This document shows, piece by piece, positions 3,267-64,000 of a stretch of DNA of 64,000 nucleotides. The stretch's first letter is position 1. Each line of letters starts with the position of its first letter. The translations under genes and the position numbers were made by a program. Source of the stretch: a virus; IMG/VR virus record IMGVR_UViG_3300049165_000116, positions 2,196 to 66,195 of that record; one strand, written 5' to 3'. The notes beneath the pieces were generated by a model. It was given only the letters and a program-made list of their open reading frames with translations. It was not told the origin of the DNA and did not search any database.

Positions 3267-3269
3267 GGG

Positions 3270-8105: not shown

Positions 8106-9773
8106 CTACTCGTCCGAGCCCTCGGACGGGCCCTCCGGACCGTCCCCGGCCCCCTCCGCCGGCTCCTCCTCGGCCTCCCCAGCCGGGGCCGCGGGCGCCA
8201 TCTCCACGGGCGGGTCCAGCGGCCTCCGCGCCCGCGGCACGAGCCCGGCCGCGCGCTCCGCGATCTCCTGGTCCACCTCTTTCAGGAGCGACGTGTACGT
8301 GTCGCCAGCGAGCTGGATGGAGGAGTGCCGCAGCGTCTCCTTCACCGCGTGGAGGTCACCGCCGCCGCCGTGGATGAGGGTGGCCGCGCAGTGCCGGAGG
8401 TCCCGGAGGTTGATCGGCGGGAGGCCGGCGCGCTTGCAGATCCGGCGGAACTCGTCGGACACCTTCTCCGGGTGGAGCCAGGAGCCGTCCTCATCCACGA
8501 ACTCCTTCCCGGTCTCCTGCCAGTCCGGAGTGTCCTTCCCCTCCGCCCGCTCCTTCGCGGCCTTCGCGTTCCAGGCCTCCCGCTCAGCCGCCTTCCGCCA
8601 CCGGTGCTGACGGATCACAGCGACGTTGAGGGAGTCCAGGGCGATCGTCGCCGCGGACCCGTCCGTTTTCGGGGTGTCTTCGAAGACCTCCCAGTTGTCC
8701 ACCACGATCTCCTTCGAGATGGTGATGCACATGCCGTCCAGGTCCACGTTCCGCTCGTCCTGGCCGACGCCCTCACCCCGGCGAAGGCCGCGGAAGGCGA
8801 TGAGGTGGAAGAAGGCGTAGAGCCTGCTCTCCTCCGCGGCGTCGAGGAACTGGCCGATCTGCGTCGGGGTCCAGACCATGACGGCGCTCGGCTTCTCGCC
8901 CGTCTTCCGCCAGTGCTCCACGTGCCGGTCCGTCCACAGCACGGCCTTCGGACGCTTCCCGGACTCCAGCTCCACCCACTGGGCCGGATTGAACGTGATG
9001 TACTGCCGGCGGATCGCCGCGTTGAGCGCGGTCCGGAGCGTCGCCCGGATGCGCTGCTTCGTCGCCGGCCCCGTGATGAGCCGGTACGGCGGCATCGCCG
9101 CCAGCTTCTCCCGCTCCTTCGCCAGACGCGCCGACTCGGCGGCCGGCGGCCGGGAGTTCTTCCCCCACTTGCACCGGGCCTCCTGCTCCCGGCGCGCGGC
9201 GTTCTCCGCCTTGATGACCTCATTCTGGTCGTCGATCGCGTCGAAGAACGCCTGACACTGGGCCACGTTGAACCGGTCCAGCCGGTAGTGGCCCACGCCC
9301 GGTTTCAGGTGCACGCGGATGTGCGACCGGTAGCCGGAGGTGGTGGTCCGCTTCGTCTTCTTCGACTCCACCCACGTGTCCAGCCACTCCCCGACCGTCA
9401 TGGAGACGTCCATGGGCACGCCGCCGGCCAGACGCCGCTTCACGTCCTCCGTGCTCGGGATCGGCTCCCGGTCCCGCATCACGGCCATGAGGAGGTCCCC
9501 GACCCGGCGGCCGGCGTCCTCGTCTCCGTCCGCCAGGTCCAGGAGCGCGCGGATCTTGTCCATGTCGCCCTGGGCATCCTTCACCTGGGCGTACCCGGTG
9601 CGCCGGAACGTGCGCCGGGTCCCCTTCTCGTCCGGCGGGAGCTCCTGGCGGAGCTGATGGTTACCGTGCGCCCGCTTGCTCAACTGCGGGCACTTCGACC
9701 CAAGCCGTTTCCCGTCCTCGCCGCGGCACTCACACCGCTTCGTGATACTCCCGGCACGACGTGCTCCGGGCAT
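8106..9773 (-). CDS. int: Tyrosine integrase
   Basis: GLRRGE, LRDLRH, LRHSSI...DTY catalytic motifs; next to att core. Confidence 0.95.
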   Translation of the reverse strand: MPGARRAGSITKRCECRGEDGKRLGSKCPQLSKRAHGNHQLRQELPPDEKGTRRTFRRTGYAQVKDAQGDMDKIRALLDLADGDEDAGRRVGDLLMAVMRDREPIPSTEDVKRRLAGGVPMDVSMTVGEWLDTWVESKKTKRTTTSGYRSHIRVHLKPGVGHYRLDRFNVAQCQAFFDAIDDQNEVIKAENAARREQEARCKWGKNSRPPAAESARLAKEREKLAAMPPYRLITGPATKQRIRATLRTALNAAIRRQYITFNPAQWVELESGKRPKAVLWTDRHVEHWRKTGEKPSAVMVWTPTQIGQFLDAAEESRLYAFFHLIAFRGLRRGEGVGQDERNVDLDGMCITISKEIVVDNWEVFEDTPKTDGSAATIALDSLNVAVIRQHRWRKAAEREAWNAKAAKERAEGKDTPDWQETGKEFVDEDGSWLHPEKVSDEFRRICKRAGLPPINLRDLRHCAATLIHGGGGDLHAVKETLRHSSIQLAGDTYTSLLKEVDQEIAERAAGLVPRARRPLDPPVEMAPAAPAGEAEEEPAEGAGDGPEGPSEGSDE

Positions 9774-12158: not shown

Positions 12159-12226
12159 TGGCCCCTCCCCTGCTACACGACCGGGGGCCACCACGGTACG
12201 GGCGCCGGGAGGACCACGTCGAGACC

Positions 12227-12261
12227 GCTTGCATGATGTGCAAACGCGTTGCACGGCAAGC
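12227..12261. promoter_or_regulatory. Nested inverted repeat, candidate operator
   Basis: GCTTGC..GTGCAA-ACGCG-TTGCAC..GCAAGC in a divergent intergenic region. Confidence 0.5.
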
Positions 12262-41300: not shown

Positions 41301-41548
41301 GCGCAGTCGTCACCGTCGCACGGTTGGAGGGTGCCCTGCACCGTGTACGGCGCGCCCGTGGCCGGGTCCACGGTGCGGGTGCCGACCCTGGCGCCGCTGG
41401 TGGTGTCGTACACGGGCTCCACGAGCACGGTGGCGGCGACGGTGCCGTCTGCCTGGACGTCGCAGAGGAGGACGGTCTCCACGTCCACGCGGGGCGTGGC
41501 CGCGGCCCCGGAGACGATTACGGGCCCCTGCCCGCAGCATCCACTCAC
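38300..41548 (-). CDS. Giant Cys/Thr-rich modular virion-associated protein A
   Basis: 1082 aa; recurrent LCD/FLR/LDG.Y..G.V..C units; lies between capsid and tail genes. Confidence 0.8.
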   Translation of the reverse strand: MSGCCGQGPVIVSGAAATPRVDVETVLLCDVQADGTVAATVLVEPVYDTTSGARVGTRTVDPATGAPYTVQGTLQPCDGDDCASRTTPVTSVGLCLADGTPIAVTVVRDCEGVVTSEGWINLTTGAWTAGAVPAGTVACGDSRSIQVSGTFCDVDADGEVVGLVLVEYTYDDTGAISSVRLVDAVTGGTYTPTGTVTTCPAGVEQPEQDAVILCDTAADGTVTEFLRDFRRDENGAIVGRSDYHLDGTVYVPTGTVGVCSSPCLNCETLLLCDGGADPATITGAGVSAGTLPNGVSWTARAGAAAGSGAVNSRLSNADGAWWGKPESFPLTTVPTYTFTFNRPSVVEFSVYMAYVANPAQPDDNCMQIPAGSEVVSLPEGFIYDPVTGQVCVTAAQTGDPCVNLTNPTRAASATFRTSGPVSSLSTFYLGARYARCGQFQSSWVGALEVTPASQFLRTICRDCDGEVTSTTDTHLDGVSPFTPLGMVSQCTPTPPCDKTVLGECVYSLPDTATGFDLAAAAFPGCWLGTALNPTYAYGDRVTSWEGTYLSGTGTVSGLGFNSPDLGGDLNFAAFAPAIPADPAESPVGYVGTATIAGVTVTLRALAGNGLSLAANTTKMLLDGGDRVRIEFSEPVRLTVTTSAFADPPTPHNERLCGVVASTVPWEAVKVADCEGVISTVDTATRQPLPATATVQCDDDCCQPVQVCVDATRTESREFISNAANATDNSVDPTWRWSPALTGPWYDMYRTPPVAGWTTQDGGTPAGTAHWVSAHPNGSPVQSNPPRPGEGPTIGVQSWYARATFNLPPAADPASIRIAATVLNADQNLVAWRLNTGAWQPVGADHTEPPTTFGPTAVPGVKPGANEMILHIQETVAGGGGAALMVHLIASYQLPDGQRSWTRMVCCDGTVYYLDDTGARREELPEFWSVAPCGTGSEPVLLCDDAGSFLRHFSYAGDQIVTTDTDLTGEAYTPVGTVRSCSSSMTGPADAPVSTGIRRVTGTAPQNLKTEAPGLQSVSVTVLAGVLNVTMSTGAAQAVPAGMTLTWSVADTDDSSLAAASFAGATAATDYVLNWTAKGSADG

Positions 41549-49158: not shown

Positions 49159-52100
49159 TCAGGAGGCGGCGGGGGCGGCGAAGGAGGCGGCCAGCCGCTC
49201 CACTTCGGCCCGGCGGTCGGCGTCCCGCTGCGCCTGGCGGTCGGCCAGGGCGTCCAGGAGGTTGTCCAGGAGCTCCGGGCGGGCCAGAGCGGCGGTGATC
49301 GCGTCCGCGGGCGCCGGGGCGGGTGTGGCGGGGGCCGGGTCCTCGAGGACGCCGGCGCTCGGCGCGGTCAGGAGGACCTGGTCCATGTCCAGCGTCGGCG
49401 CGGCGGCGGCGGAGGCGGCCAGGGCAAGGTTCGAGCGCTCTACCGCGGCCGCGAGGAGCGGGGAGGAGTGCCCGGGGACGGGGACGGAGAGGACGGCGCG
49501 GAGCTGCCAGCGGCCGTCCGCGGCCTGGCGCATGTGGTAGCTCGGCTGGCAGGCGGTGAAGACGGTCCGGTCCCACTGGCTCAACCACGGGGCGGCGGCC
49601 CCGCTGAACCACAACCCGCGCTCGTTCATGCCGCACGTGACCACCGCGGCGACGGTGCGGGTGTCATCGAACTGGCAACTGGCGGTGTCGCACTCGGCGC
49701 CGTCCCTGCTGTGCGGGACGTTCATGGTGAACGCTCCGGCCCGCACGTACGAGCCGTCATCGAGCTTGAAGCGGGCGCGGAGGAAGTGCGACATGTCGAT
49801 GTCGCCCAGGGACTCCACGGTCAGGTTTCGGCCGGGGTAGCCGGCGTGCGGCTCGCCGGCCTGGGCCACCCACCCGTAGACCCGGCCGCCCGCGTAGTGG
49901 ACGCCGCCGCTCCCGGGCGGCAGTTCCTCCGGGGTCGGCTCACGGAACCAGGCCGCCGGCATGGGGTCCGCGTCCTGCATCGCCGTCCACGCGGAGGCCA
50001 CCAGCTCGCCCATGACCTCATCCGGGATCGCGTGGACGTGCGGGGCGCCCGGCCGCTCCAGGGACTCGCCGGGCTCGGTGGAGAGGGAGGCGGCCACCTC
50101 CTGGCCCTCGGGCATGGAGGAGGCACCGGCGTACAGGCCGGGCGCCATGCGTACCAGGTGCCCCGACTTGACGGCCCGGTTGAGGTGGTCGCGGGCCGTC
50201 TTCACGGAGACGCCGACCGCGCGGGCCACCTCGGCGGCTCCCACGGGGGCCGGGCAGCCGCGGACGTACGTGATGACCCGCTGCTGGGTGTTCCCGCCGG
50301 CCGCGGTGACCGGGGCCGGGGCGGCGGAGGCGGCGGCCTCCTCCTCGTCCAGGGGGTCCAGGACGATGCGGGCCCGGTCGTACGCCGGCATGGCGACGAG
50401 GGTGGCGCCGCGGAGGCGGGCGCGGGTGATGCGGAGGAGGAGGTCCCCGGAGGACTCGGCGTGGACGACCACGCCCGTCTCCGGGTCGTCCGGGTCACCG
50501 GCCGCGGCGGTCAGGACGCCGGCGCCCTCGAACGCGGCGCGCACGCTGGAGGCGGTGACGGCGCCGCCGGGGCCGGTGATGAGCTGCGCAGTGTGCCGGA
50601 GGCGGGCCGGGTGGCCGCCGGCCGCGGTCCAGGACGGCGCGGTGGACGCGGTGATCATGTAACCGCCGTCATCCAGGCGGAGAACGGACGCGGAGGCGAG
50701 CGAGGCGGCCAGGATGAGGACGCCGTCCTCTCCCTCGCTCATGGTGCGGTCCACGAACTCGATATCGACGTCGTCCAGGTCCACGCTCACGCCGAGGGGC
50801 GCGCCCTCTTCCAGGAGCATGGTGGCTTCTGCGCCCGCGCGCTGTGAGAGGTAGAGGACGCCCTCTCCGGTGATGCGGTCGCCGTCCCGGCCGAGGCTGG
50901 TGATGGACGCGGCGAGCTCGGCGCCCTGGTGGCCGGAGAGCATTTCGTCGGCGTACTGGAGGGGCCAGGGGCCGGAGCCGTCCCAGTAGAGGGAGCCGGG
51001 GGCGAACACCCTCCCGTCGCCGGTCTCCTGGTTCTCGAACGCCAGGGCGGCGTCCCCTGGTGTGCTCCAGGCGCGGGTGGGCATCCCCGCCGCGGTCTCT
51101 TCCGTCATGGGTTCCTCCTCGGTCAGGGGGATGTCGATGTGGTCGCCGCCGAAGGCCAGGCGGATGCGGTCGAAGGTGATCGGGCCGAGGCGCGCCTCCA
51201 GCTCCTCCAGGAGCTCCGGGGCGTCGCTGTAGGCCGCGCAGACGTGCGGGACCCATGGGGAGTGCTGGCGGGGGATCTCCGGGCGCTCGTGGGTGTCTTC
51301 CAGGGCGTCCGTGACCAGGTCGTGGGCCTGGACGAGGGTGGGGGCGTCGTCGTCGGCGTCCCGGTCGTCACCCACCGCCCACACCCAGGACGGGGAGCTG
51401 GTGCCGGCGTTCCAGTGGTTCGCGCCGAACGCCCGGGCGGTGACGGGGCCGCCGAGCTCGCTCACGCGGGAGCGGACGCCGGCCGCGAGCTCGCGCCGCT
51501 GGTCCTCCGTCCAGTCGGCGCCGTTGTCCCCGAGGAACCACAGGGTGAGGTGGAGCTCGGCGGCGTCCTCCCCGCCCTCAATGGCGAGGCGCGCGGCGTC
51601 CTCCTCGGTAGGGATGAGCGCGATCATGCCGCCCTGGAGGTGGCTCCCGTCCGCGGCGGCCGTCACCGGCGCCTGGTTCGTGGGCCCACCCGCGGGTGGT
51701 TCCTGGCTTTCGTAGGCGTCGCCGCGGGCCGGGGCCTTCGGTTCCCCGGCCGCGGTACGGTCCGCGCGGGCCAGGGCCAGGACGCACCGGCAGTTGATGA
51801 CGAGCTCCGGCGGCGCGGTCGGGTCCCCGGGGGCCTGCATGGCCACCCCGGCCACGCTGAAAGCCTCATCCACGAGGCGGAGTTGCCCGTCCACGGCATC
51901 ATGGGCGTCCCGGACGTCGGTGTCCCTCCTGGTGAGCCACTGCTTCACCAGCGGCCGGTCCGGGCCCTCCAGGGCGCGCCCGGCCTCCAGCGTGGCCGTG
52001 TTCCAGGCACGGGTGGCCTCCGTACGGGCGGTGCGTTCCTCCCGGACGCGGCCGAGCTGCGCGGAGTCCGGGGCGAAGCGGGCGCGGAGGCGGTCGCGGA

Positions 52101-52533
52101 GCTGGTCCACGCTCTCCCCGGCGTCCAGGCCCGCGGCGAGTTCCTGGCGGGCGGCCTCCGCGAGGCGGTCCCCTACGGCGCGGAGCAGGTGCTCGGTGAC
52201 GGTGGCGTACTGGCCGAGCTCGCCCGGGAGTTCCCGGCCTTCCTCATACCGCTCGGGGAGGTCCGTCCAGGTGTCGTCCAGCTCCCCGCCCACCGCGTCC
52301 GCCGCGGCGTGCGCGCTGGTCTCCACGACGCCGAAGAGACGGCGGACGATGCGCGGGACGCGGGCGCTCCACATGCGGGCGATGCGGCCCACGGAGAACC
52401 GGGCGGCCACCAGCTCGTCCGCGTCGGCCACGGCGGCCGCGAACTCGTCCGCGACCTCGCGTAGGACCTCCCGGACGGTGCGGGCCACCTCCCGCTCCGC
52501 CTCCTGGACGGCCTGGACCAGGTCCTCATCCAC
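49159..52533 (-). CDS. MuF-like head protein / 2H phosphoesterase / maturation protease fusion
   Basis: KQWLTRRD..VR.AH...PGDP...INCRC (MuF); HLTL and HVC (2H); ETGDGR, GVSVDLD, ATLV..PAY (protease-like). Confidence 0.85.
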   Translation of the reverse strand: MDEDLVQAVQEAEREVARTVREVLREVADEFAAAVADADELVAARFSVGRIARMWSARVPRIVRRLFGVVETSAHAAADAVGGELDDTWTDLPERYEEGRELPGELGQYATVTEHLLRAVGDRLAEAARQELAAGLDAGESVDQLRDRLRARFAPDSAQLGRVREERTARTEATRAWNTATLEAGRALEGPDRPLVKQWLTRRDTDVRDAHDAVDGQLRLVDEAFSVAGVAMQAPGDPTAPPELVINCRCVLALARADRTAAGEPKAPARGDAYESQEPPAGGPTNQAPVTAAADGSHLQGGMIALIPTEEDAARLAIEGGEDAAELHLTLWFLGDNGADWTEDQRRELAAGVRSRVSELGGPVTARAFGANHWNAGTSSPSWVWAVGDDRDADDDAPTLVQAHDLVTDALEDTHERPEIPRQHSPWVPHVCAAYSDAPELLEELEARLGPITFDRIRLAFGGDHIDIPLTEEEPMTEETAAGMPTRAWSTPGDAALAFENQETGDGRVFAPGSLYWDGSGPWPLQYADEMLSGHQGAELAASITSLGRDGDRITGEGVLYLSQRAGAEATMLLEEGAPLGVSVDLDDVDIEFVDRTMSEGEDGVLILAASLASASVLRLDDGGYMITASTAPSWTAAGGHPARLRHTAQLITGPGGAVTASSVRAAFEGAGVLTAAAGDPDDPETGVVVHAESSGDLLLRITRARLRGATLVAMPAYDRARIVLDPLDEEEAAASAAPAPVTAAGGNTQQRVITYVRGCPAPVGAAEVARAVGVSVKTARDHLNRAVKSGHLVRMAPGLYAGASSMPEGQEVAASLSTEPGESLERPGAPHVHAIPDEVMGELVASAWTAMQDADPMPAAWFREPTPEELPPGSGGVHYAGGRVYGWVAQAGEPHAGYPGRNLTVESLGDIDMSHFLRARFKLDDGSYVRAGAFTMNVPHSRDGAECDTASCQFDDTRTVAAVVTCGMNERGLWFSGAAAPWLSQWDRTVFTACQPSYHMRQAADGRWQLRAVLSVPVPGHSSPLLAAAVERSNLALAASAAAAPTLDMDQVLLTAPSAGVLEDPAPATPAPAPADAITAALARPELLDNLLDALADRQAQRDADRRAEVERLAASFAAPAAS

Positions 52534-52747
52534 GGGGTGCTCCTTCCTCGGGCTCGTCGCAGATCTCGCACCCGGCGTACGCGCCGACCAGGGACACCCC
52601 GGCCGGGGTGAGGAGGAGGACGTCCCCCGTGAACCGCGTGTACGCCTTGCAGACCTGGCACCAGTCGGGGCGCGGCTCACCGGCCATGACGTAGACGGTG
52701 AGCACGGGCAGGGGCGGCGGCACGGGCGGCCGGCGGCGGGGCGTCAC
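52526..52747 (-). CDS. Small Zn-ribbon protein
   Basis: WCQVC...CEIC; overlaps portal stop and MuF start. Confidence 0.55.
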   Translation of the reverse strand: MTPRRRPPVPPPLPVLTVYVMAGEPRPDWCQVCKAYTRFTGDVLLLTPAGVSLVGAYAGCEICDEPEEGAPRG

Positions 52748-55221: not shown

Positions 55222-56301
55222 ATGCCCCTGCCCCTTCCCGACCAGCACACCCACCGCGCCTACGCCCGGACCGTGGCCCATGCCCTGGCCGCCGCCGGCA
55301 TCCCCGTGTCCCGGCTGTCCTTCCCTCATGACGACGAGGATGCGGACCTCGTCCTCATGCGGCGCGCCGTCCTGGACCTCGACATGCGAGCCACCCACCA
55401 CGTGTACGGAGACCAGGAGGTCTCTCTCCTGTGGAGTGATGAGGCCGGTTGGTCCCTCGGATGGGGCCCGGCCGGGGACGTCTGCGGTGCCGTGTTCACG
55501 GTGTGCCGGTCCCTGGTGCCGGAGCCGGCGGACGTGGTGGCCGCCGCCCGGGCCGCGCTCACCGTTCCGCCCGTCCAGGACGTACCGTGCCCGTTCCGCT
55601 CGTGCCAGGACTATGACGAGGAGCTGGAGAACGTGCTCGACGCCTACACCGTCCGCGAGGACATCGGCATGGACCGCGTGCTGGACCGGCTGGAGGAGCA
55701 CCGGGAGCGGGTGCGCTTCACCTCCCCCGGCGCGCCGTTCCCCGGCCGCGTGGGACGGGACGACGTGAACGCCGGCCTCCTCCTGGCCCTGGCGCGGCTC
55801 CTGGAGGACGGGGACGAGGCGGAGGCCGTGGAACGTGTGGCGTGGCACCTGGCCGTCACGGGCCTATGGTGCCCGCGGCCGGCCGAGCATCACGCCCACC
55901 CGCAGGGTCCGGCGCTCCCGGCCGAGGACGTAGACCTCCTCCTGGCCCTGGAGATCCACGCGGGCAACCGCAGCGTGCGCGGCCTCACCGCCCGGTACGC
56001 CCACCTCGCCGTGGACCGCAACCGGGTACGGGCCGTCCTCTGGCGGGTGGCCCGTGAGTACATGGCGAGTGACGCGCAGCGGCACGGGCCCTACCGCCTC
56101 ACCGCACGGGACCATGAGGGCAACCGGGCCCGGCGCCGGATGAACCTCCGGTACGTCTCCCCGGAGGAGGCGGAGGTCCAGGACCCGCGGCTCTACCGGC
56201 TGCGCCTCATCACTGACCGGGTGTCCCAGTTCGCGGGCGGGTGGGTGCCGCCAGGCTGGCCCCCGGCGCTCACCTCCCAGAACTGCCCCGTGGAGTCGTG
56301 A
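55222..56301 (+). CDS. Hypothetical protein
   Basis: 359 aa, GGAG RBS, opposite strand to late genes. Confidence 0.7.
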   Translation: MPLPLPDQHTHRAYARTVAHALAAAGIPVSRLSFPHDDEDADLVLMRRAVLDLDMRATHHVYGDQEVSLLWSDEAGWSLGWGPAGDVCGAVFTVCRSLVPEPADVVAAARAALTVPPVQDVPCPFRSCQDYDEELENVLDAYTVREDIGMDRVLDRLEEHRERVRFTSPGAPFPGRVGRDDVNAGLLLALARLLEDGDEAEAVERVAWHLAVTGLWCPRPAEHHAHPQGPALPAEDVDLLLALEIHAGNRSVRGLTARYAHLAVDRNRVRAVLWRVAREYMASDAQRHGPYRLTARDHEGNRARRRMNLRYVSPEEAEVQDPRLYRLRLITDRVSQFAGGWVPPGWPPALTSQNCPVES

Positions 56302-56425
56302 GCCGCGAGTAGGCGGGCGACATCGGGGCCGTAGCCGAGCGGGACGAACACCACGGCGGCGGAGAGCTCGGCCATGGTCGGCGCGGCCGGCACCAGGCCG
56401 CCGGGGGCGAACTCCTGGCCGGCGC

Positions 56426-56860
56426 TCACGCGCTGGTCCCGTTGAGCCGGGCGCGGACCCACTCGGCGTCCGTCTCCGCGACGTGGGCGCCGGCGCTCCG
56501 GGCCACGTGGATGGTCGTCGGCTGGCCGTCACCGTCCTGCTCGGGGCCCACCCACGCGTGCCAGGGCTGGGAGCCGCGGTCCGGCGGGGTGTGGCCGTCC
56601 GGGCAGTGCGGGCAGCCGGCAGAGACCTCCACGGCCGCGGCCTCCTCGGCCGGGATGTCGAGAGCCGCGCGGACGGCGCAGTCCTTCGCCTCCAACAACT
56701 TGCGGAGTCCGGCGGTGCGCTCCGGGATCTGCGGGAGGCGGGCCACCAGCTCGTGGGCCAGGGTGCGGAAGGGGACGGAGACGGCGGCCAGGTGGGCGGG
56801 GAGGTGGTCGGTGTCGAAGTAGCGCAGGAGGGCGGCGGTGGCGGGGTCGTGGACGGTCAT
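56426..56860 (-). CDS. Small helical-hairpin protein, possibly Acb2/Tad1-like
   Basis: YF..DHLP.HL..VS.PF..LA...ERTAGLRKLLEAKDCAVRA; AAGGAG RBS. Confidence 0.65.
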   Translation of the reverse strand: MTVHDPATAALLRYFDTDHLPAHLAAVSVPFRTLAHELVARLPQIPERTAGLRKLLEAKDCAVRAALDIPAEEAAAVEVSAGCPHCPDGHTPPDRGSQPWHAWVGPEQDGDGQPTTIHVARSAGAHVAETDAEWVRARLNGTSA

Positions 56861-56982
56861 GACCAGGCTCCTTCACGGTCGTTGTGCGGCCGGGAAGGGT
56901 ACGGGAAGCGGGCTCCGCGTGGTGACGGACGGGCGCCGGCCCCCGCACTGGGCGAGGGCCGGGCCGTGGCGTCGGGAACGGT

Positions 56983-57150
56983 TCAGCCGCCCCACTCCCG
57001 GGCGGCCAGGTCGTCCGGCTCGGCGCGGTACGCCTCCTCCTGCTCGTTCAGGTAATCGCAGATGCAGCGAGGTACCCCGCCGAAACCCGCCGGCTGCGCC
57101 TCCAGGCACTCCGGCATACAGGACGCCTCGTCCGGCTGCTCGTACGGCAT
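56983..57150 (-). CDS. Small Cys-containing hypothetical protein
   Basis: GAAGGAG RBS; MPYEQ...C..EC...CICD. Confidence 0.45.
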   Translation of the reverse strand: MPYEQPDEASCMPECLEAQPAGFGGVPRCICDYLNEQEEAYRAEPDDLAAREWGG

Positions 57151-57303
57151 CGGATTCACTCCTTCGTTCTCGCGGCCCGGGCCGGGCCGTCTCACCCCTA
57201 CCGCCGGCGGGGATAGAAGGTGGCGGAATTTACCAATCTTGTGGCTCCTGGGGCTCATGTGGCGCCGTCGTCCGGGCTCCTCTTCTCGTGGGAGCCTGAC
57301 CTC

Positions 57304-57588
57304 ATGCTGAGTGACGTTGCCCTGGACGAGTACCTGGCCGCCAACCCGGAGGCCGACCGCGCCGCCCTCCACGATCCGCAGTTCGCCGCCGAGGTGGCCC
57401 GTATGCGGACCGTCCTGGACCGGCTGGACACCGGCCTGGAGGCCGAGGGCCTGGACGTGGAGGCGCGCCGCCGGATCGGCGTCCGCCTCCTCGCGGACTG
57501 CCTCCTGACCGACGAGGCCCGGGAGCGGGTCCAGGAGCGTCACCGGCTCGCGCGGGAGCTCGCCGGGGGCGCGCTCCCGGCGCTCTAG
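57304..57588 (+). CDS. Hypothetical helical protein
   Basis: GGGAG RBS; plausible composition. Confidence 0.55.
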   Translation: MLSDVALDEYLAANPEADRAALHDPQFAAEVARMRTVLDRLDTGLEAEGLDVEARRRIGVRLLADCLLTDEARERVQERHRLARELAGGALPAL

Positions 57589-57653
57589 AACTGGCAACGG
57601 GCAACACCCGGTTCGGGCTGTCCGCGGGGCTCGGGCCCGGCCAGACTCGGGGC

Positions 57654-58109
57654 ATGACCGAGAACGAGAACAGGCCGGTCGTCCACGTGATCAGCTTCGG
57701 GTACGGGCACACCGGTGCCCTGGACGATGACGGCCTCACGGTGCTGGAGCCGCCGACCGCGGACGTCACGCTGGACCTCCGCCGCACACTCCACAACCCC
57801 CACCATGACCCGGCCATGCGGCACCGCACCGGCCTGGACGAGGTGGTCCACGCCCACGTGCTGGACACCCCGGGGACCCAACTCCTCGTGCTCAACGCGG
57901 CCATGGCGGCCCACGTGCTCATGCAGCAGGCGCGGCCCGCCTCCCTCACGGTGGCCGCGGGTTGCACGGGGGGCCGGCATCGCGCGGTGTCGGTGGCCCG
58001 CGCGGTCCACGCCGCGCTCACCGAGTTCTCCCGGGCTGGTGGGTACCGGACGGAGCTGGTGCACCGGGACGTCCACCGCCCGGTCCTCTCCTCCAGTAAG
58101 CACGCCTGA
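57654..58109 (+). CDS. Stand-alone RapZ C-terminal-like domain protein
   Basis: ISFGY.H, AD...DLR..L.NP, TGLD, GCTGGRHRAV, HRD. Confidence 0.85.
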   Translation: MTENENRPVVHVISFGYGHTGALDDDGLTVLEPPTADVTLDLRRTLHNPHHDPAMRHRTGLDEVVHAHVLDTPGTQLLVLNAAMAAHVLMQQARPASLTVAAGCTGGRHRAVSVARAVHAALTEFSRAGGYRTELVHRDVHRPVLSSSKHA

Positions 58110-58453: not shown

Positions 58454-60097
58454 TCACCGGGTGCGGGTGCCTCCGCCGCCGATGGTGCGCCCGTACCGGG
58501 AGGCGCCGCGGGCGCCCTGGCCGCCGGTGGCCTGGCCGCGGCGTGCCGGGGAGTGAACGGCCGACGTCTTCAACGACTCCGCGGCGAAGGCCATGACCAC
58601 AGCGTCTCCCTTGTCCGGGCTGCGCCCCATGCGCTTGACCAACTTCTCCTTCGGCTCCACGCGGATCTTCGGCGGGACGCCGGTGACGGTGTCCCACGTC
58701 GGGGCGGTGAGGTCGGATAGGAGCTCGTCGTCCGGGGGGAGCATGATCTCCGGCTCGTACGTAGGGTCCAGGAGCTCGCGCATCCGCCAGTACGCCGCGG
58801 ACCGGAGGTTGGTGAACCCCCACTCCCCGTCCCTAGTGCGCGCGTTGCTCTTGGCAGAGCCGGTGTACGCCAGGACGGGGACGCCGAGCTCCCGGAGGCG
58901 GTCCACGACGCCTCCGCCGACGCCGATGGAGTCCACGACGGGGACCACCTCTCCGTCCTCTCCGGTGGCCGCCTGGACCCTGGCGGTGGTGCGCATGGTG
59001 TTCTCCCGGTCGTGGGTCTCCAGCTCCACGACGGCCGGGCCCCAGCGGTGGGCGAGGATGGTGGAGTCCCCGCCGGCGCGGGCGACGTCCACGCCGGTGT
59101 AGCGGCGGCCCTCGAGGTCTGGGCGGCCGGCCTGGTCCCACTCGTGCCACCGCTCCACGGCGGCCTCCACCCACGCGAGCGGGATGACGGAGTCCTCGTC
59201 CGACGCGTGGAACTCGCCGGCGACGCGGTTGGCGTACATGGCGGAGTCCCGGCCCCACTGGCGGGCGCGCTGCTCCGCCCAGGCCCGGGAGATCCGGCCG
59301 GCGGCGATGGCCTCCTCCAGGGTGACGTGGCGGACCCACCAGTCCTCCAGGCCGGGCGCCCTCCGGTGAATGTCGTAGAACCGGCCTGCCGGCGGCCCGG
59401 GCGTGCTGATCGCGAAGGCGAAGGCCTCCGGGAGCTCGCCCAGCGGGGCGTCCGTACGGCCGCCGGAGAAAGCACCCTCGACGGCGTCCCAGGTGGCGTC
59501 CGGGACGATCTTCGCCTCATCGATGAGGTACAGGAGGGAGTCGGCGTGGGCGCCCTCGATGAGCTCCGGCTTATGGGAGGCGACCGGGGTCGCGGCGCCG
59601 TTGTCCAACTTGAGGTTGAGCGCCAGGAGCTCGGTGCGCTCGGAGAACGGCGGCCGGCCTACCCGGTCCCACCGGATGCGCTTCGCCCACTTGCGGAGCT
59701 CGGGCACCAGGTACACGGCGAGGTGCCGCCAGGCGGAGGCCGTCATGATGACCTTCCAGTCGATCCCGGCGGCCTCCCTCGTGGTGGCGAACCACAGGAC
59801 GGTGATCGCGGCCTGGGCCGTCTTCCCGAGGCCGTGAGGGCCCCGTACGGCCACGCGGCGGTGTACGGGGATCGCACCCAGGACGTCCTGTTGGTAGGGG
59901 GTCAGGCCCTCCCCGGCCTCCCAGGCGATGCAGTCCCGCGCCCACCCCACCGGGTCATACATGTACCGCAGGACCCGGCGGGAGTTCTTCCGTACCCGGG
60001 CACGGCGGACGGTGTCCCGGACCTCGCGGAGGGCGGTGATGTCCCCGGTGCGGACGAGCTCCTGGACCTCGCGCTCCAGGTCCTCCCGGGTCCTCAC
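58454..60097 (-). CDS. terL: Terminase large subunit
   Basis: GPHGLGKT Walker A, LIDEA Walker B, GVDVAR and SPDKGDA nuclease motifs. Confidence 0.93.
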   Translation of the reverse strand: MRTREDLEREVQELVRTGDITALREVRDTVRRARVRKNSRRVLRYMYDPVGWARDCIAWEAGEGLTPYQQDVLGAIPVHRRVAVRGPHGLGKTAQAAITVLWFATTREAAGIDWKVIMTASAWRHLAVYLVPELRKWAKRIRWDRVGRPPFSERTELLALNLKLDNGAATPVASHKPELIEGAHADSLLYLIDEAKIVPDATWDAVEGAFSGGRTDAPLGELPEAFAFAISTPGPPAGRFYDIHRRAPGLEDWWVRHVTLEEAIAAGRISRAWAEQRARQWGRDSAMYANRVAGEFHASDEDSVIPLAWVEAAVERWHEWDQAGRPDLEGRRYTGVDVARAGGDSTILAHRWGPAVVELETHDRENTMRTTARVQAATGEDGEVVPVVDSIGVGGGVVDRLRELGVPVLAYTGSAKSNARTRDGEWGFTNLRSAAYWRMRELLDPTYEPEIMLPPDDELLSDLTAPTWDTVTGVPPKIRVEPKEKLVKRMGRSPDKGDAVVMAFAAESLKTSAVHSPARRGQATGGQGARGASRYGRTIGGGGTRTR

Positions 60098-60519
60098 GTC
60101 AGGTCACCGGCGCCGCCGTCGTCGCCCTCCAGGAGCGCCAGGATCTCGTCCCCGAGGCGCTGCGCCTCCACGTTGAGCCGGGTCGGAGCCTTCGTGCCCT
60201 CCACGTCCGCGCGGCCGGCGAGGCACTTGAGCACGATGTCCGCGGCTTTCTTGTCCTTCTCCTGGATGGCCAGGGGCCAGAACGCGGCCTGTAGGCGGTC
60301 GTACCGGGCGACGGTGAGGGCGCGCAGCTCCTCCACGTTGGCGTTCTGCTCCCGGAGGTTGGCTTTCAAGGCCTCCCCCACGGCGGTGCAGGCGGCGCCG
60401 GCGGAGGCGTAGCCGACGCGTTCAGCGATCGTCGCCCAGTCCACCCCGGCGACCCGGAGCGCGGTCGCCTGCGCCCTCTTCTTCGCCGCGGCGGCGCGCT
60501 GTGCTTTCGATGCGCCCAT
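60094..60519 (-). CDS. terS: Terminase small subunit (HTH)
   Basis: LRVAGVDWATIAERVGYAS; GTGA overlap with terL. Confidence 0.75.
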   Translation of the reverse strand: MGASKAQRAAAAKKRAQATALRVAGVDWATIAERVGYASAGAACTAVGEALKANLREQNANVEELRALTVARYDRLQAAFWPLAIQEKDKKAADIVLKCLAGRADVEGTKAPTRLNVEAQRLGDEILALLEGDDGGAGDLT

Positions 60520-60608
60520 GAGGCCCCCTCACTTTCCAGAGTCTTATGGGTTCCAGAGACGCCCGGGCCGGGTGGGCCTCCCGGCCGGGGTGGTACGGGG
60601 TGCCGGCG

Positions 60609-61385
60609 CTACGTGCCGGTGGGGGTGGCGAACGCGCCGACGACGCACCAGGAGTGCCAGCGGAACAGGACCTCGGGGCACGTCCAGCCGGCGGCGTTGA
60701 TCGCGGAGAGGAGGGTGGCCTCGGGGTACGGCTGGAGGACGCCGCGGAGCGCCCGGGCCTTCGCGCGGATCGCGGCGTCCGTGATGCCGTGCGCGGCCTT
60801 CCAGTCGTGGGAGGCCTCGGCGGCGATCTCCGCCCAGCGGGAGTCCGGGGGCCGCACCTTCTCCGCGACGATGAGCGCGCCGGTGGAGGCGGAGGCCTGG
60901 CGGGCGCCCGTGAGGACGGCGATCCGGTCCGGGACGGAGAGGAACTGGAGGGTGAAGAGGGCCACGGTGAGGTCCGCGTCCTCATGCGGGAGCCGTTCGT
61001 GGCGGAAGTCGCCGGGGACGTAGGCCACGTGGAGGTTGGAGAGGCCGCTCAGGTCCTCGGCTGCCCGGTCGAGCATCGCGGGCTCCCGGTCGTAGAGGAA
61101 GGCGCGGAGCTTGCGGCCGGGGTGGCGGGCGGCGATGCGGTGGGCGGTGGTGCCGGTGGAGGCGCCGAGGTCCGCGAGCGTGCCCTCATCCGGGAGGAGC
61201 CAGTCCGCGGCCTCGGCCACGAGGTCCTGGATCGCGTCGTAGAACGGCACGGAGGCGCGGACGTGCTCGGGGAAGACACTGGCCACCTCGGGCGTGAACT
61301 CCCAGGCGCCGGTGGTGAAGCGCTCCGCGATGTCCCCGGCCGGGACGGCGGTGGGGTCAGCCGTAGATGCGGGTGTGTTCTGCAC
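60609..61385 (-). CDS. CmoA-like carboxy-SAM synthase / methyltransferase
   Basis: W.F..EVA.VFP.H...SVP.Y, DLGASTG, FTLQFL, GALIVAEK, K...L.GVL parallel E. coli CmoA. Confidence 0.8.
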   Translation of the reverse strand: MQNTPASTADPTAVPAGDIAERFTTGAWEFTPEVASVFPEHVRASVPFYDAIQDLVAEAADWLLPDEGTLADLGASTGTTAHRIAARHPGRKLRAFLYDREPAMLDRAAEDLSGLSNLHVAYVPGDFRHERLPHEDADLTVALFTLQFLSVPDRIAVLTGARQASASTGALIVAEKVRPPDSRWAEIAAEASHDWKAAHGITDAAIRAKARALRGVLQPYPEATLLSAINAAGWTCPEVLFRWHSWCVVGAFATPTGT

Positions 61386-62769
61386 GGTAGTACCTCACGG
61401 GGTTGGGGAGGGCGCGGGTGATGAGGGGCTTCAAGCCCAGGCCGTCCTGGAACGCGACCTTTCCGCGGCGGGTGACGGAGGCGGGGAGGGCGTCGCGGTA
61501 GGCGGCGGAGAGCACGGCTTTGCGGCCGGTGGGGGTGTCGGCGTCCCGTACGACGTCCATGGGCATGGAGAGCGCCAGGGTGACCAGGTCGGGGTCCAGG
61601 AAGGGGAGGCGGCCCTCCACGCCGGCGCTCATGAACGCTTTGTTCACGCGGGGGAAGTTGCGGACGGCCTGGGCGTGGATGAGGTCGCGGCGGGCGCGGT
61701 ACCAGCCGTGAGCCTGGATGCTCCGGTAGGCGAAGCCGTAGGAGGCCCAGAGTTCGTCCGAGCCCTCGCCGGAGTAGGTGACCCGGTACCCGTCCGCGCT
61801 CATCGCCTCCGCGAGGGCGAGGCACGGCCAGGCGATCTCCACCTGTGCTTTGTACGGCTGCTCAATGACCGCCAGGGCGTGGGAGAGGTCGTCCGCGGTG
61901 GGCGGCTCCACCGGGACCTCCACGAGCGTCACGCCGAGCGCTTCGGCGGTCTCCCGCGCGCACCGGAGGTCCGCGGAGCGGGGGTCCAGGACGGCGGTGT
62001 ACGTGGTGAGGCCGGGGTGGTGGCGGACCAGCTCGGCGACGATGGCGGCGGAGTCGATGCCGCCGGAGAGGAGCGCGCACACCGGCACGTCGGAGATGAC
62101 GCGGCGGTCTACCGCGCGGGCCAGGGCGTGGCGGAGCGCCGGCGCGGCGGTCTCGCGGGTGAGCCCGGGGTCCGGGGTGGCGGTGAGCTGGTGGTAGACG
62201 TGGCGGGTGATGGCGCCGGCGGGGTAGAGCTCCCACCACTCCCCGGGCTCCACGTCCACCACGGCTTTCCCGCAGCGCCGGCCGAGCGCGCGGAAGGCCT
62301 TGAGCTCGGAGGCCACCAGGAGCGGGAGGGCGCGGTGGACGTGGAGCGGGACCTCGCCGTGGCGGTCACGCGCGGCGTGGAGGACGCCGGGCCGGCGGGT
62401 GTCGTGCCAGGCGAGGCCGTACATGCCGTCCAGCTCCGGGAGCGCGGTGGCGGGGCCGAGGACGGCCAGGGCCGCGGCCACCACCTCCGTGTCCCCCGAG
62501 GTGCGCCAGGTGCGCCGCGGGTCGGCGGCCTCCACCAGGGTCCGCACGCGCGGGGCGTTGAACAGCTCGCCGTTGTAGACCAGGGTGACCGGGCCGTCCC
62601 GGTACGGCTGGTCCGAGCGGGCGCCGGGGTCCTGGATCGCCAGGCGGGTGTGGCCGAGGGCCACGCCGGGCTCCTGCACGGTGGCGGAGGAGTCGGGGCC
62701 GCGGTGCGCCAGGGCCTCCACCGCGGGGGTCAGGTCCACGTGGCCGGTGGCGCCGATGATGCCGCACAC
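61357..62769 (-). CDS. AsnB-like glutamine-dependent amidotransferase
   Basis: MCGI, HRGPD, HTRLAI, YNGE, DTEV, LSGGIDS, SGEGSDE, E.R.PFLD. Confidence 0.93.
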   Translation of the reverse strand: MCGIIGATGHVDLTPAVEALAHRGPDSSATVQEPGVALGHTRLAIQDPGARSDQPYRDGPVTLVYNGELFNAPRVRTLVEAADPRRTWRTSGDTEVVAAALAVLGPATALPELDGMYGLAWHDTRRPGVLHAARDRHGEVPLHVHRALPLLVASELKAFRALGRRCGKAVVDVEPGEWWELYPAGAITRHVYHQLTATPDPGLTRETAAPALRHALARAVDRRVISDVPVCALLSGGIDSAAIVAELVRHHPGLTTYTAVLDPRSADLRCARETAEALGVTLVEVPVEPPTADDLSHALAVIEQPYKAQVEIAWPCLALAEAMSADGYRVTYSGEGSDELWASYGFAYRSIQAHGWYRARRDLIHAQAVRNFPRVNKAFMSAGVEGRLPFLDPDLVTLALSMPMDVVRDADTPTGRKAVLSAAYRDALPASVTRRGKVAFQDGLGLKPLITRALPNPVRYYRAEHTRIYG

Positions 62770-62771
62770 GG

Positions 62772-63983
62772 TCAGATCACCCCCCGTTCGCGGAGGGGGA
62801 TGAGGACCTGGTCCCGTACGGCTGCGGCGATGTGGCTCATCATCACCGGGGGGACGGCGCGGCCGATGCGCTCCCAGCGCTGCTCATAGGTGCCGGTGAG
62901 GACGAAGTCCGGGGGGAACCCGCCGATGGCGCGGAGCTCCTGGAGGGTGAGTTTCCGGGCCTCCGCGAAGTGGGTGACGGAGGCCTTCGTGACGTTCCCG
63001 CCCTCGGCGGTGATCGTCTGGGACGGCTTGTCCGGGTCGATGCGCTTGAGCGAAAAGAACCGCTCCGAGGAGCCGCCGCGCGGGGTGTCGCGCCAGGCCT
63101 CCCCGATGGCGTACCGGCCGATGTGAATGCTCTTGCCGGTCTCTGGGTCGTGGGTGACCTCTTGGCCCTCGGCGGGGTCCAGGACGCGGAAGTGGTACGA
63201 GTTCATGGCGTCGGTGCCGACGGTGATTGCCGGGCTCGGCTTGTCGGTGACGTCGCCCTGGCCGCGGGCGCCGGAGGTGTCGTGGACGAGTCGGGGAACG
63301 GTCGGGAGGGCGTCGCGGACGGTGTACTGGTAGGGCAGCGGCCGGGGGAACGCCGGCGGGAGCTCTAGGTCCTCTCGGACGCCGACGAAGATGAGCCGCT
63401 GGCGGGACTGCGGGACGCCGAGGCGGGAGGCGTCCAGGAGCCGGGCCTCCACGCGGTAGCCGCAGGCCTTGAGCGTGGCCAGGATCTCCAGGAAATAGCC
63501 CTTCGCCGTGCCCTTGATCAGGCCGGACACGTTCTCCGCGACGAACGTGCGGGGCTGGAGGTCCCGGAGGATGCGGGCGAACTCGAAGAAGAGGTCATCG
63601 GTGCGCTGCGCGGTGTCGCTGTAGGCCTTGACCTTCCCCCACCCGGCCTCCCGCTTGCCCATGGTGGAGAACGAGGCGCACGGCGGGGAGCCGTCCCAGA
63701 GGTCCAGCTCGCCCACGGCGAGGCCGGTGGCGGCGCAGATGTCGGCGGCGGTCACCTCGCGGATGTCCCGGGTGTCCAGGACGGTGTACGGGGCGGCGTT
63801 GGCGCGGTAGGTCTCCTGGGCGGCCGGGATGAACTCCGAGGCCCAGAGCACGCGGAACCCGCCCATGCGGTAGCCGAGGGAGGAACCGCCGCAGCCGGAG
63901 AACGAGGAGGCGGCGTTGAACCCGTTCCACGGGATGGCGGCGATCTCAGCCATGGCCGGCACGCGATACGGAGGCTTCGCCAT
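62772..63983 (-). CDS. DNA cytosine-C5 methyltransferase homologue with Arg in motif X
   Basis: FSGCGG (I), GSPPC (IV), ENV (VI), QSRQR (VIII), IGRAVPP (X). Confidence 0.95.
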   Translation of the reverse strand: MAKPPYRVPAMAEIAAIPWNGFNAASSFSGCGGSSLGYRMGGFRVLWASEFIPAAQETYRANAAPYTVLDTRDIREVTAADICAATGLAVGELDLWDGSPPCASFSTMGKREAGWGKVKAYSDTAQRTDDLFFEFARILRDLQPRTFVAENVSGLIKGTAKGYFLEILATLKACGYRVEARLLDASRLGVPQSRQRLIFVGVREDLELPPAFPRPLPYQYTVRDALPTVPRLVHDTSGARGQGDVTDKPSPAITVGTDAMNSYHFRVLDPAEGQEVTHDPETGKSIHIGRYAIGEAWRDTPRGGSSERFFSLKRIDPDKPSQTITAEGGNVTKASVTHFAEARKLTLQELRAIGGFPPDFVLTGTYEQRWERIGRAVPPVMMSHIAAAVRDQVLIPLRERGVI

Positions 63984-64000
63984 GGCGTCCAGGGCCGGGC

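Follow-up and report, generated by a model that had tools for sequence, protein, structure and literature searches.

The window analysed here is a 64,000-nt stretch of DNA (bases 2196-66195) from a virus record of 66,195 bp, IMGVR_UViG_3300049165_000116. Three minus-strand ORFs, encoding a DNA cytosine methyltransferase (MTase), an AsnB-like protein and a CmoA-like protein, form a cassette close to its end (ORF listing; Table 1). Between the end of the MTase stop codon (62772) and the start of the AsnB-like gene (62769) lies a 2-nt gap, whereas the CmoA-like gene, with its start at 61385, overlaps by 29 nt the AsnB-like gene, whose stop codon begins at 61357. The AsnB-like ORF has a GTG start followed by a Cys codon (MCGI...), and no fourth enzyme lies between the three translationally coupled genes. 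The spacer that leads to the packaging genes contains a GAGGGGG ribosome-binding site before the ATG of the next gene (start 60519) and is homologous to the final 88 nt of the record of Streptomyces phage TurkishDelight (MW291017); no minus-strand terminator-like site was found in these 89 nt (60520..60608). The gap, overlap and spacer confirm the initial annotation, which had described three tightly coupled genes directly upstream of terminase. All three genes display a GC3 of 0.95-0.97, in line with genuine coding sequence in a genome of 72-74% GC.

Table 1. Features of the cassette and its surroundings (window positions).
Feature	Coordinates	Strand	Details
MTase, CmoX-type DNA cytosine C5-carboxymethyltransferase (predicted)	62772..63983	-	403 aa, ATG start
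AsnB-like, glutamine-dependent AsnB-family amide ligase (predicted), "Gln-type CmoY"	61357..62769	-	470 aa
Phage-type CmoA, predicted carboxy-SAM synthase	60609..61385	-	258 aa, GTG start
Spacer, cassette to packaging genes	60520..60608	-	89 nt
Terminase-small-subunit-like / HTH protein	60094..60519	-	141 aa; phrog_645, E 1.4e-27
Large terminase subunit	58454..60097	-	547 aa; phrog_2, E 4.6e-42
Repressor-like regulator	10869-12254		phrog_5823, phrog_2328
Integrase	8106..9773	-	555 aa; phrog_1, E 3.6e-41

The window phage and TurkishDelight are related genome-wide, with 78-85% DNA identity. TurkishDelight gp123-gp125 are orthologues of the cassette proteins (90%, 76% and 76% protein identity) and share their gene order, 2-nt gap, 29-nt overlap and position before the HTH and terminase genes. 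The window HTH protein is 76% identical to gp1, a "helix-turn-helix DNA binding domain protein", and the large terminase is 89% identical to gp2. The virus record stops 17 nt upstream of the MTase ATG; thus the sequence preceding the cassette is absent, as is part of the phage genome. In TurkishDelight the cassette is preceded by two genes with ParB-like nuclease domains, which for this reason are not found in the window record. Prophage copies of the cassette were identified in Streptomyces, Nonomuraea and Streptosporangium. Together with the integrase and the repressor-like regulators, these copies support a TurkishDelight-like temperate actinophage as the carrier, in agreement with the initial annotation.

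The MTase matches PF00145 (E 7e-51), and its best PDB match is 8YF3, the SpCmoX enzyme of cyanophage S-B43 (E 3.3e-61; compared with 7.6e-23 for M.HaeIII). SpCmoX belongs to the CmoA/CmoX/CmoY system described by Yang et al. (Nat Commun 2025, December 2025; PMC12783734), who used an SPPC motif plus an Arg in motif X as the criterion that retrieved 5,615 CmoX sequences. In the window MTase, Cys102 lies inside the SPPC catalytic motif, and Arg375 aligns with SpCmoX R350 at the motif-X Asn position. The cofactor-site residues F28, E50, F51 and D73 correspond to F25, E47, F48 and D69 of SpCmoX, and the cytosine-contacting Glu (ENV) and Arg (QxRxR) are kept. SPPC, ENV, QxRxR and the equivalents of SpCmoX F25, E47, F48, D69 and R350 are conserved in 66/66 unique neighbour MTases. 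The HMMER alignment with SpCmoX breaks at residues 206-309, which constitute the recognition domain. Wild-type SpCmoX is reported to use Cx-SAM as sole cofactor, while its R350N variant used neither cofactor (PMC12783734). Judged by its motifs and residues, the window MTase is a CmoX, and its operon also contains the CmoA gene, two genes further downstream. The proposal that the enzyme would write a carboxymethyl group is supported by the same Arg, which defines the Cx-SAM-using CmoX enzymes.

The CmoA-like protein matches phrog_4752 (E 1.7e-51) and the CmoA structure 4GEK (E 5.6e-21). Its score against the CmoA model TIGR00740 (99.8 bits, E 1.8e-28) is below the 193.3-bit equivalog cut-off, as is that of the biochemically verified SpCmoA (115.6 bits; E. 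coli CmoA scores 455), so the cut-off shuts out true phage enzymes. The six top Foldseek matches of its AlphaFold model (pLDDT 90.4) are all CmoA/YecO structures (4GEK, 4IWN, 1IM8; TM 0.78-0.91). The SAM-site residues Y49, D72, G74, S76, D99, F148 and E175 are kept, their E. coli CmoA counterparts being Y39, D62, G64, S66, D89, F137 and E164. In E. coli CmoA, Arg199 is bonded through a salt bridge to the carboxylate of the cofactor (Byrne et al. 2013, PMC3663124). The initial annotation had cautioned that this Arg was shifted, and indeed the column is occupied by Ala210 in the window protein, with an Arg as the very next residue, and by Glu in SpCmoA. Window Arg214, however, falls in column 203, where SpCmoA also has an Arg. 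Among 70 unique CmoA sequences, the Arg occupies column 203 in 59, column 199 in 8, neither in 3 and both in none, and the window protein therefore shows the majority pattern. In the model, residues 203-213 form a helix, and displacement of the Arg by one turn along it explains why Arg199 is missing from phage CmoA. By sequence and fold, with its Arg placed as in verified SpCmoA, the protein is a phage-type CmoA and a predicted Cx-SAM synthase, as initially proposed.

The AsnB-like protein comprises PF00733 (Asn_synthase) and GATase_6/7 domains and matches E. coli AsnB (1CT9, E 3.4e-36). Its glutaminase site (Cys2, R23, R42, N66, G67, E68, D93) and PP-loop (S235-GGIDS) are intact, as the initial annotation had stated. 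Among 70 unique members of the ligase family, C1, R30, R49, N74, G75, D98 and the PP-loop are invariant (70/70), and the glutamine-site Glu76 is replaced by Thr or Ala in 42; the window ligase keeps the Glu. All 70, the window ligase included, carry A-Q-V-E in place of the E. coli T-T-I-R motif (Thr322/Thr323/Arg325), which we take to be the beta-aspartyl-AMP site of AsnB, and the acceptor site thus appears altered. Identification as asparagine synthetase B (EC 6.3.5.4) was rejected on this replacement and on a TIGR01536 score of 226.7 bits, under the 267.1-bit cut-off. A SpCmoY-type glycine ligase was also rejected, since domain content differs and identity is 27% over 110 aa, in the PP-loop region only (pairwise E 2e-4). 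With so weak a resemblance, the amidation step proposed below is drawn from gene linkage and not from homology to a tested enzyme. The window ligase shares 76% identity with TurkishDelight gp124 over 469 of 470 residues, and exact look-up revealed that gp124 is UniRef100_A0A7T0Q3R0 (UniProt A0A7T0Q3R0). In Yang et al., A0A7T0Q3R0 stands for a cluster of glutamine-hydrolysing ligases that are linked to CmoA and CmoX (PMC12783734), and by sequence the window ligase is a member of that cluster.

Linkage of the ligase to CmoA and CmoX is strong. Both partners adjoin it in 84 of 91 close-homologue loci, six of the others being cut by contig ends and one a true exception. In viral loci both are present in 74/80, the contig of each of the other six ending on the side on which the absent partner would lie; in cellular genomes both are present in 10/11. 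The neighbourhood check suggested by the initial annotation therefore found the three genes together, in three orders: AYX (49 loci), XYA (29) and YXA (6), where A, Y and X denote CmoA, ligase and CmoX. In AYX loci the Gln-type enzyme occupies the slot that SpCmoY fills in S-B43, and the flanking proteins are close to those of S-B43 (CmoA mostly 84-95% identical; CmoX 70-95%, mostly 85-95%). A homologue of 45% identity, whose active-site signature is unchanged, lies among cellular genes in a Chloroflexi MAG, and neither CmoA nor CmoX was found anywhere in its 4.1 Mb, suggesting that the acceptor of this ligase subfamily is not always 5cxmC.

These observations suggest that the locus is probably a three-enzyme CmoA/CmoX/ligase cassette for DNA hypermodification, in which cytosine is carboxymethylated and then amidated, carried by a TurkishDelight-like temperate actinophage. 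In step 1, CmoA would convert SAM and prephenate to carboxy-SAM, in a host presumably lacking its own enzyme for making it. In step 2, the motif-X Arg of CmoX would hold the cofactor carboxylate while the carboxymethyl group is moved onto cytosine C5 in double-stranded DNA, yielding 5-carboxymethylcytosine. In step 3, the AsnB-family enzyme would adenylate the side-chain carboxylate at its PP-loop site and amidate it with ammonia freed from glutamine by the N-terminal Cys glutaminase domain; this would yield 5-carbamoylmethylcytosine, a neutral amide. Steps 1 and 2 most likely proceed in this way, given their close agreement with the verified S-B43 enzymes, while step 3 is a prediction based on domain content, the altered acceptor site and gene linkage. 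Transfer presumably precedes amidation, as CmoX keeps its carboxylate-binding Arg without exception next to Gln-type ligases. The pathway put forward in the initial annotation is thus supported, each proposed step fitting the sequence and linkage evidence. With somewhat less confidence, we lean towards 5-carbamoylmethylcytosine, made with glutamine-derived ammonia, as the base written by the cassette. The carrier is temperate and no CmoA besides the prophage copy was found in four host genomes; expression of the operon in lysogens might therefore place the base in the bacterial chromosome as well. The modification probably shields phage DNA from host nucleases; the S-B43 paper shows such protection for 5cxmC against HhaI only (PMC12783734).

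A variant that keeps steps 1 and 2 is that the ligase attaches another nucleophile (an amino acid, a polyamine or another amine), or that the base is processed further. SpCmoY, the sole ligase of such cassettes with an assay in Yang et al., adds glycine, and other amines are predicted there for additional ligase clusters (PMC12783734). The absent part of the phage genome could also hold more tailoring genes. The window ligase, however, has a complete Ntn glutaminase site, wholly absent from SpCmoY, and to our knowledge such domains deliver ammonia in every known AsnB-family enzyme; moreover, the three genes are translationally coupled, with no further enzyme in between. This variant is therefore considered unlikely. 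More doubtful still is that the AsnB-like enzyme amidates a small molecule, such as carboxy-SAM or a metabolite, leaving 5-carboxymethylcytosine in the DNA. The Chloroflexi homologue and the weak similarity to the DNA-acting SpCmoY would fit this, but on cyanophage-like contigs the place of SpCmoY, flanked by near-identical CmoA and CmoX, is taken by the Gln-type enzyme, and prior amidation of the cofactor would leave the invariant carboxylate-binding Arg of CmoX without a purpose.

The existing annotations point elsewhere: the TurkishDelight genes are labelled "methyltransferase", "glutamine amidotransferase domain" and "methyltransferase", and PHROGs calls the CmoA family "tRNA methyltransferase". 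An ordinary 5mC methyltransferase lying by chance near unrelated SAM methyltransferase and asparagine synthetase genes would account for such labels. This explanation is already disfavoured and very improbable, as motif X has Arg and not Asn, the linkage is kept across three gene orders and the aspartate-site motif of asparagine synthetase is replaced. RNA modification is opposed by CmoB, which was found in no cassette locus and, above the family cut-off, in none of the same four host genomes.

Carboxymethylation followed by amidation is thus the preferred reading, but the novelty implied by the initial annotation does not hold, since the gene set and the amide idea are already published, with an orthologue of the window ligase as cluster head (PMC12783734). 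Yang et al. suggest glutamine-derived ammonia as substrate of this cluster, the second largest ligase cluster in their survey; the recombinant enzyme of this glutamine-dependent branch was insoluble (PMC12783734). The putative end product, 5-carbamoylmethylcytosine, is likewise already suggested in print, and our searches found no paper reporting the base in any DNA; a full-text literature search found none mentioning "TurkishDelight". The window cassette is therefore a new example of a published gene set. With CmoA and CmoX, a natural route for placing a carboxyl handle on DNA is known for the first time, and the glycine-amide branch is the only one shown chemically. To this the cassette adds little conceptually and has three practical uses. 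The window ligase is a further natural sequence for expression, 24% diverged from the protein that failed, with additional candidates among prophage orthologues (59-61% identity) in Nonomuraea and Streptosporangium species that have sequenced isolate genomes. TurkishDelight is an isolated phage (host Streptomyces scabiei RL-34), in which the base could be measured directly. The shifted Arg is useful for annotation of phage CmoA, because curated CmoA models reject even a verified phage enzyme.

The closest characterised system is that of the Synechococcus phage S-B43, which follows the same logic: Cx-SAM from a phage CmoA is used by a C5-MTase homologue, with Arg in motif X, to write 5cxmC. The window shares all SpCmoX site residues and the CmoA Arg placement, and in both systems an AsnB-superfamily PP-loop ligase is coupled to CmoA and CmoX. 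SpCmoY, however, has 271 aa, lacks a glutaminase domain and adds glycine, while the 470-aa window ligase has an intact one. The gene order is X-Y-A in the window and A-Y-X in S-B43. Unlike S-B43, the window phage is temperate, its host is a high-GC actinobacterium and its CmoX recognition domain is unalignable with that of SpCmoX. The window ligase resembles E. coli AsnB (1CT9) in its two-domain architecture, N-terminal Cys glutaminase residues, PP-loop (SGGxDS) and equivalents of E348, D351, R387 and K449, but it is 84 residues shorter, displays Leu for K376 and Asn for D384, and is linked to DNA-modification genes, in contrast with the role of AsnB in amino-acid metabolism. The CmoA fold and SAM-site residues are common to the E. 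coli CmoA/CmoB pathway of cmo5U34 in tRNA, from which window-type loci differ in having no CmoB partner and, in place of Arg199, an Ala with the Arg four residues later. Finally, the engineered carboxymethyltransferase M.MpeI N374K can use Cx-SAM because the Asn of motif X is replaced by a basic residue (PMC12783734), as it is in the window CmoX; in M.MpeI this residue is a Lys introduced by engineering, and the enzyme acts at CG sites, whereas the window CmoX is a natural Arg enzyme.

The cassette at the high-coordinate end of the window comprises three coupled genes encoding, as the initial annotation had recognised, a C5-methyltransferase homologue, an AsnB-family protein and a CmoA-like protein, and both the arrangement and the families were upheld by ORF calling and by Pfam, NCBIfam and PHROGs. 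A 2-nt gap separates the first two genes, the second overlaps the third by 29 nt, and GC3 is 0.95-0.97 in all three. The spacer after the cassette (89 nt) contains a ribosome-binding site, and beyond it lie a 141-aa HTH/small-terminase-like gene and then the large terminase (PHROGs). A promoter/terminator scan of positions 59900-64000 revealed no promoter-like site and no minus-strand terminator-like site between the cassette and the terminase genes; the single terminator-like site in that interval is a plus-strand one and is no more than expected by chance.

Coordinates of the cassette, of other window features and of the compared loci
Feature	Sequence	Position	Strand	Length	Basis
C5-methyltransferase homologue	window	62772-63983	minus	403 aa	ORF call
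AsnB-family protein, N-terminus M-C-G-I	window	61357-62769	minus	470 aa	ORF call
CmoA-like protein	window	60609-61385	minus	258 aa	ORF call
Integrase	window	8106-9773			PHROG
MuF/portal-like head protein	window	49159-52680	minus	1173 aa	
Giant paralogue	window	38300-41548	minus	1082 aa	
Giant paralogue	window	41545-45303	minus	1252 aa	
Three-gene island	window	55222-58109	plus	359, 122, 151 aa	
ParB-like nuclease-domain genes	TurkishDelight (L001)	3127-4730			
Two-enzyme variant	Evaa (L004), OP434461	1-8946			
Ligase homologue	Chloroflexi MAG (L097), contig JAADYZ010000449.1	4673-6076		467 aa	
CmoA-model and CmoX matches	Gemmataceae MAG (G006), C685	2569-5775			
CmoA-model and CmoX matches	Gemmataceae MAG (G006), C70	13294-14339			

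PHROG scans of 20 further window ORFs assigned a portal, a MuF/protease fusion, a major head protein, a tape measure, a minor tail protein and an endolysin, together with the integrase, repressor-like regulators, RecE/RecT-like proteins and a DnaQ-like exonuclease. On this gene content the window phage is classed as a temperate, siphovirus-type actinophage. Streptomyces phage TurkishDelight (MW291017; 93.6 kb) is its kin along the whole genome, with DNA identities of 83.4% in the cassette, 85% in the terminase region, 80.6% from portal to capsid and 78.4% in the early region. The cassette could have been a mobile module common to otherwise unrelated phages, a reading ruled out by the 78-85% identity of the terminase, head and early regions. 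The TurkishDelight record begins at the gene following the cassette, which therefore stands at the record's right end. The source record of the window, an IMG/VR entry of 66,195 bp from which bases 2196-66195 were taken, extends only 17 nt upstream of CmoX (window positions 63984-64000). By comparison with TurkishDelight, a stretch corresponding to roughly 56-90 kb of that phage (about 34 kb) appears absent from it, including two ParB-like nuclease-domain genes, and a completeness estimate of 93% is therefore probably too high. One or two genes of this type lie directly upstream of CmoX in TurkishDelight and in three further loci (L007, L008 and L087). No ParB-like partner was found in the whole 66,195-bp record by tblastn with TurkishDelight gp121/gp122 and Gordonia phage Evaa gp1/gp2, and none is seen upstream of the window CmoX because the record ends before that position.

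Three other features of the window genome were recorded. Residues 339-521 of the MuF/portal-like head protein match phrog_2659 ("RNA ligase", E 7.8e-25) and phrog_18402 (head maturation protease), and to judge from these matches the stretch is an enzymatic domain inserted into the head protein. The adjacent giant paralogues each match phrog_18824 (unknown function) in four stretches. The plus-strand island separates the large terminase gene from the portal gene in a genome that is otherwise minus-strand, and a PHROG scan of its 359-aa gene gave no match.

The closest solved relative of the window methyltransferase is CmoX of Synechococcus phage S-B43 (SpCmoX, PDB code 8YF3; E 3.3e-61), followed by M.HaeIII (E 7.6e-23). 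SpCmoX was described as moving the carboxymethyl group from carboxy-SAM (Cx-SAM) onto cytosine C5; its Arg350, which stands for the motif-X Asn, contacts the cofactor carboxylate, and the wild-type enzyme accepts only Cx-SAM as cofactor while the R350N variant accepts neither cofactor (Yang et al., PMC12783734). In an alignment of 66 unique CmoX sequences, drawn from 79 matches with at least 90% query coverage, F25, E47, F48, D69, S-P-P-C, E-N-V, Q-x-R-x-R and R350 (SpCmoX numbering) are present in 66/66, the window equivalents of the site residues being F28, E50, F51, D73, C102, E150, R194/R196 and R375. At the level of sequence, the window methyltransferase is a CmoX. Its recognition domain (residues 207-308) gave no alignment with SpCmoX, and the GC specificity of SpCmoX is therefore not transferable to the window enzyme.

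The CmoA-like protein matches E. coli CmoA (4GEK) with E 5.6e-21, and the six best Foldseek matches of its AlphaFold model (26 sequences; pLDDT 90.4) are all CmoA/YecO structures. The SAM-site residues listed for CmoA by Byrne et al. (PMC3663124), which comprise Y39, D62, G64, S66, D89, F137 and E164 (E. coli numbering, also used for the alignment columns), are retained. Its score against TIGR00740, 99.8 bits, is below the cut-off of 193.3 bits; the verified enzyme of S-B43, SpCmoA, falls below it too (115.6 bits), and also under the cut-off of the second curated CmoA model, NF011995. The carboxylate partner of E. coli CmoA, Arg199, is Ala in the window protein and Glu in SpCmoA. Among 70 unique CmoA sequences (E. 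coli, SpCmoA, window, TurkishDelight and Evaa, plus those loci whose coverage reached 85%, L007-L096 included), Arg occupies column 203 in 59, column 199 in 8 and neither in 3; as no sequence has both, the two positions are mutually exclusive. SpCmoA and the window protein (Arg214) belong to the column-203 group. Column 203 lies four residues beyond column 199; columns 199-202 (window 210-213) belong to a predicted helix (window residues 203-213), with Arg214 directly at its C-terminal end. These observations suggest that the carboxylate-binding Arg is shifted by one helical turn in the phage CmoA lineage. The initial annotation had raised the displaced Arg199 as a caveat; the displacement is real, but on this reading the objection falls away, since the verified SpCmoA shares the Arg at column 203. 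Column 200, which is Lys or Arg in 52/69 phage-set sequences, was considered as the relocated partner and rejected, as seven of the 70 sequences carry Ile, Gln or Ser there and yet keep Arg at column 203; the column that alternates with 199 is 203. The window protein is thus predicted to be a phage-type carboxy-SAM synthase.

Linkage of the CmoA (A), ligase (Y) and CmoX (X) genes was surveyed in the best 80 of 106 ligase relatives from a profile-guided IMG/VR scan and in 25 relatives from a second scan, in which each prokaryotic species was represented by a single genome; the queries at each locus were the proteins of the window, S-B43 and E. coli. The neighbourhood co-occurrence that the initial annotation had proposed as a check is evident, both partners lying beside the ligase in 74 of these best 80 viral loci and in 10 of the 11 close genome loci (at least 35% identity over more than half of the query). 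At the other six viral loci (L010, L019, L023, L054, L066 and L080) the ligase gene is at the contig end, on the side expected for the missing gene. These 10 genome loci come from Streptomyces, Nonomuraea and Streptosporangium plus a Gemmataceae MAG; L088 and L009 are one and the same contig. At 20-30% identity, the remaining 14 genome relatives show neither CmoA nor CmoX at the locus. CmoB was found at none of the searched loci. Gene orders are A-Y-X (49 loci), X-Y-A (29) and Y-X-A (6).

The one true exception among close loci is in a Chloroflexi MAG (L097), where the ligase homologue, at 45% identity to that of the window, shares its A-Q-V-E acceptor-site signature. A DUF6796 gene is start/stop-coupled to this homologue and an FkbM-type methyltransferase gene is nearby, the remaining neighbours (PBP, MFS transporter, histidine phosphatase) being likewise cellular, and neither CmoA nor CmoX was found in this 4.1-Mb, possibly incomplete MAG. 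In the Gemmataceae MAG, seven CmoA-model matches and two to CmoX are spread over different contigs, a pattern suggestive of several phage or prophage fragments with cassettes in one bin. Evaa carries a two-enzyme variant without ligase that adjoins the terminase and encodes a ParB-like nuclease, a methyltransferase fused to a ParB N-terminal domain, and a CmoA-like protein 54% identical to that of the window.

In four actinobacterial genomes bearing cassette prophages, nothing but the prophage gene gave a substantial CmoA match, and the phage must therefore supply its own Cx-SAM. No CmoB match reached the cut-off in these four genomes, leaving Cx-SAM without evident tRNA use there.

The alignment of the window ligase to E. 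coli AsnB covers residues 19-447 (E 3.4e-36), and the ligase scores 226.7 bits against TIGR01536, below the cut-off of 267.1 bits. Across 70 unique family members (matches spanning residue 3 or earlier to 460 or later, shorter ones dropped), the glutaminase residues C1, R30, R49, N74, G75 and D98 and the PP-loop S-G-G-x-D-S are invariant, while the position of Glu76 varies, with Glu in 28 (the window included), Thr in 37 and Ala in the remaining 5. The AsnB motif T-T-I-R, which we take to be the beta-aspartyl-AMP site (Thr322/Thr323/Arg325), is A-Q-V-E in 70/70, and AsnB K376 and D384 are replaced by Leu and Asn. The enzyme is predicted to be a working glutamine amidotransferase with an acceptor site unlike that of asparagine synthetase. 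Its closest orthologue, TurkishDelight gp124 (76% identity), is by exact look-up UniRef100_A0A7T0Q3R0, the example named as representative of the second largest ligase cluster by Yang et al. (PMC12783734). The TurkishDelight protein proved insoluble; further orthologues, in prophages of Nonomuraea and Streptosporangium, have 59-61% identity.

In the proposed pathway, CmoA would convert SAM and prephenate to Cx-SAM, and CmoX would attack C6 through Cys102 and transfer the carboxymethyl group to C5; both steps are proposed from residue-level agreement with verified enzymes. The ligase may then adenylate the side-chain carboxylate and amidate it with glutamine-derived ammonia, giving 5-carbamoylmethylcytosine. 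Amidation might instead take place on the cofactor, but the invariant carboxylate-binding CmoX Arg beside Gln-type ligases argues for amidation after transfer. Protection from nucleases is a plausible role; Yang et al. (PMC12783734) demonstrate it for 5-carboxymethylcytosine alone, against HhaI. That paper already describes the cassette, its wide occurrence and its association with ParB and makes the glutamine-ammonia suggestion, and its survey may include this very record, because IMG/VR v4 is among its sequence sources. A full-text literature search gave, among the matches listed, no report of the amide base in DNA, the carbamoylmethyl matches examined being tRNA ncm5U and carbamoylmethyl-adenine, and no paper naming TurkishDelight. 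TurkishDelight itself is available as an isolate (host S. scabiei RL-34).

Comparison with S-B43 bears on the ligase substrate. In the A-Y-X group, CmoA is mostly 84-95% and CmoX 70-95%, mostly 85-95%, identical to the S-B43 proteins, and the Gln-type ligase occupies the exact place of SpCmoY, the S-B43 ligase. This non-orthologous swap gives the strongest support for a substrate common to the two ligase types. SpCmoY, an assayed glycine ligase, has 271 aa and no glutaminase domain, whereas the window ligase has such a domain within its 470 aa, and the similarity between the two is weak (27% over 110 aa, E 2e-4).
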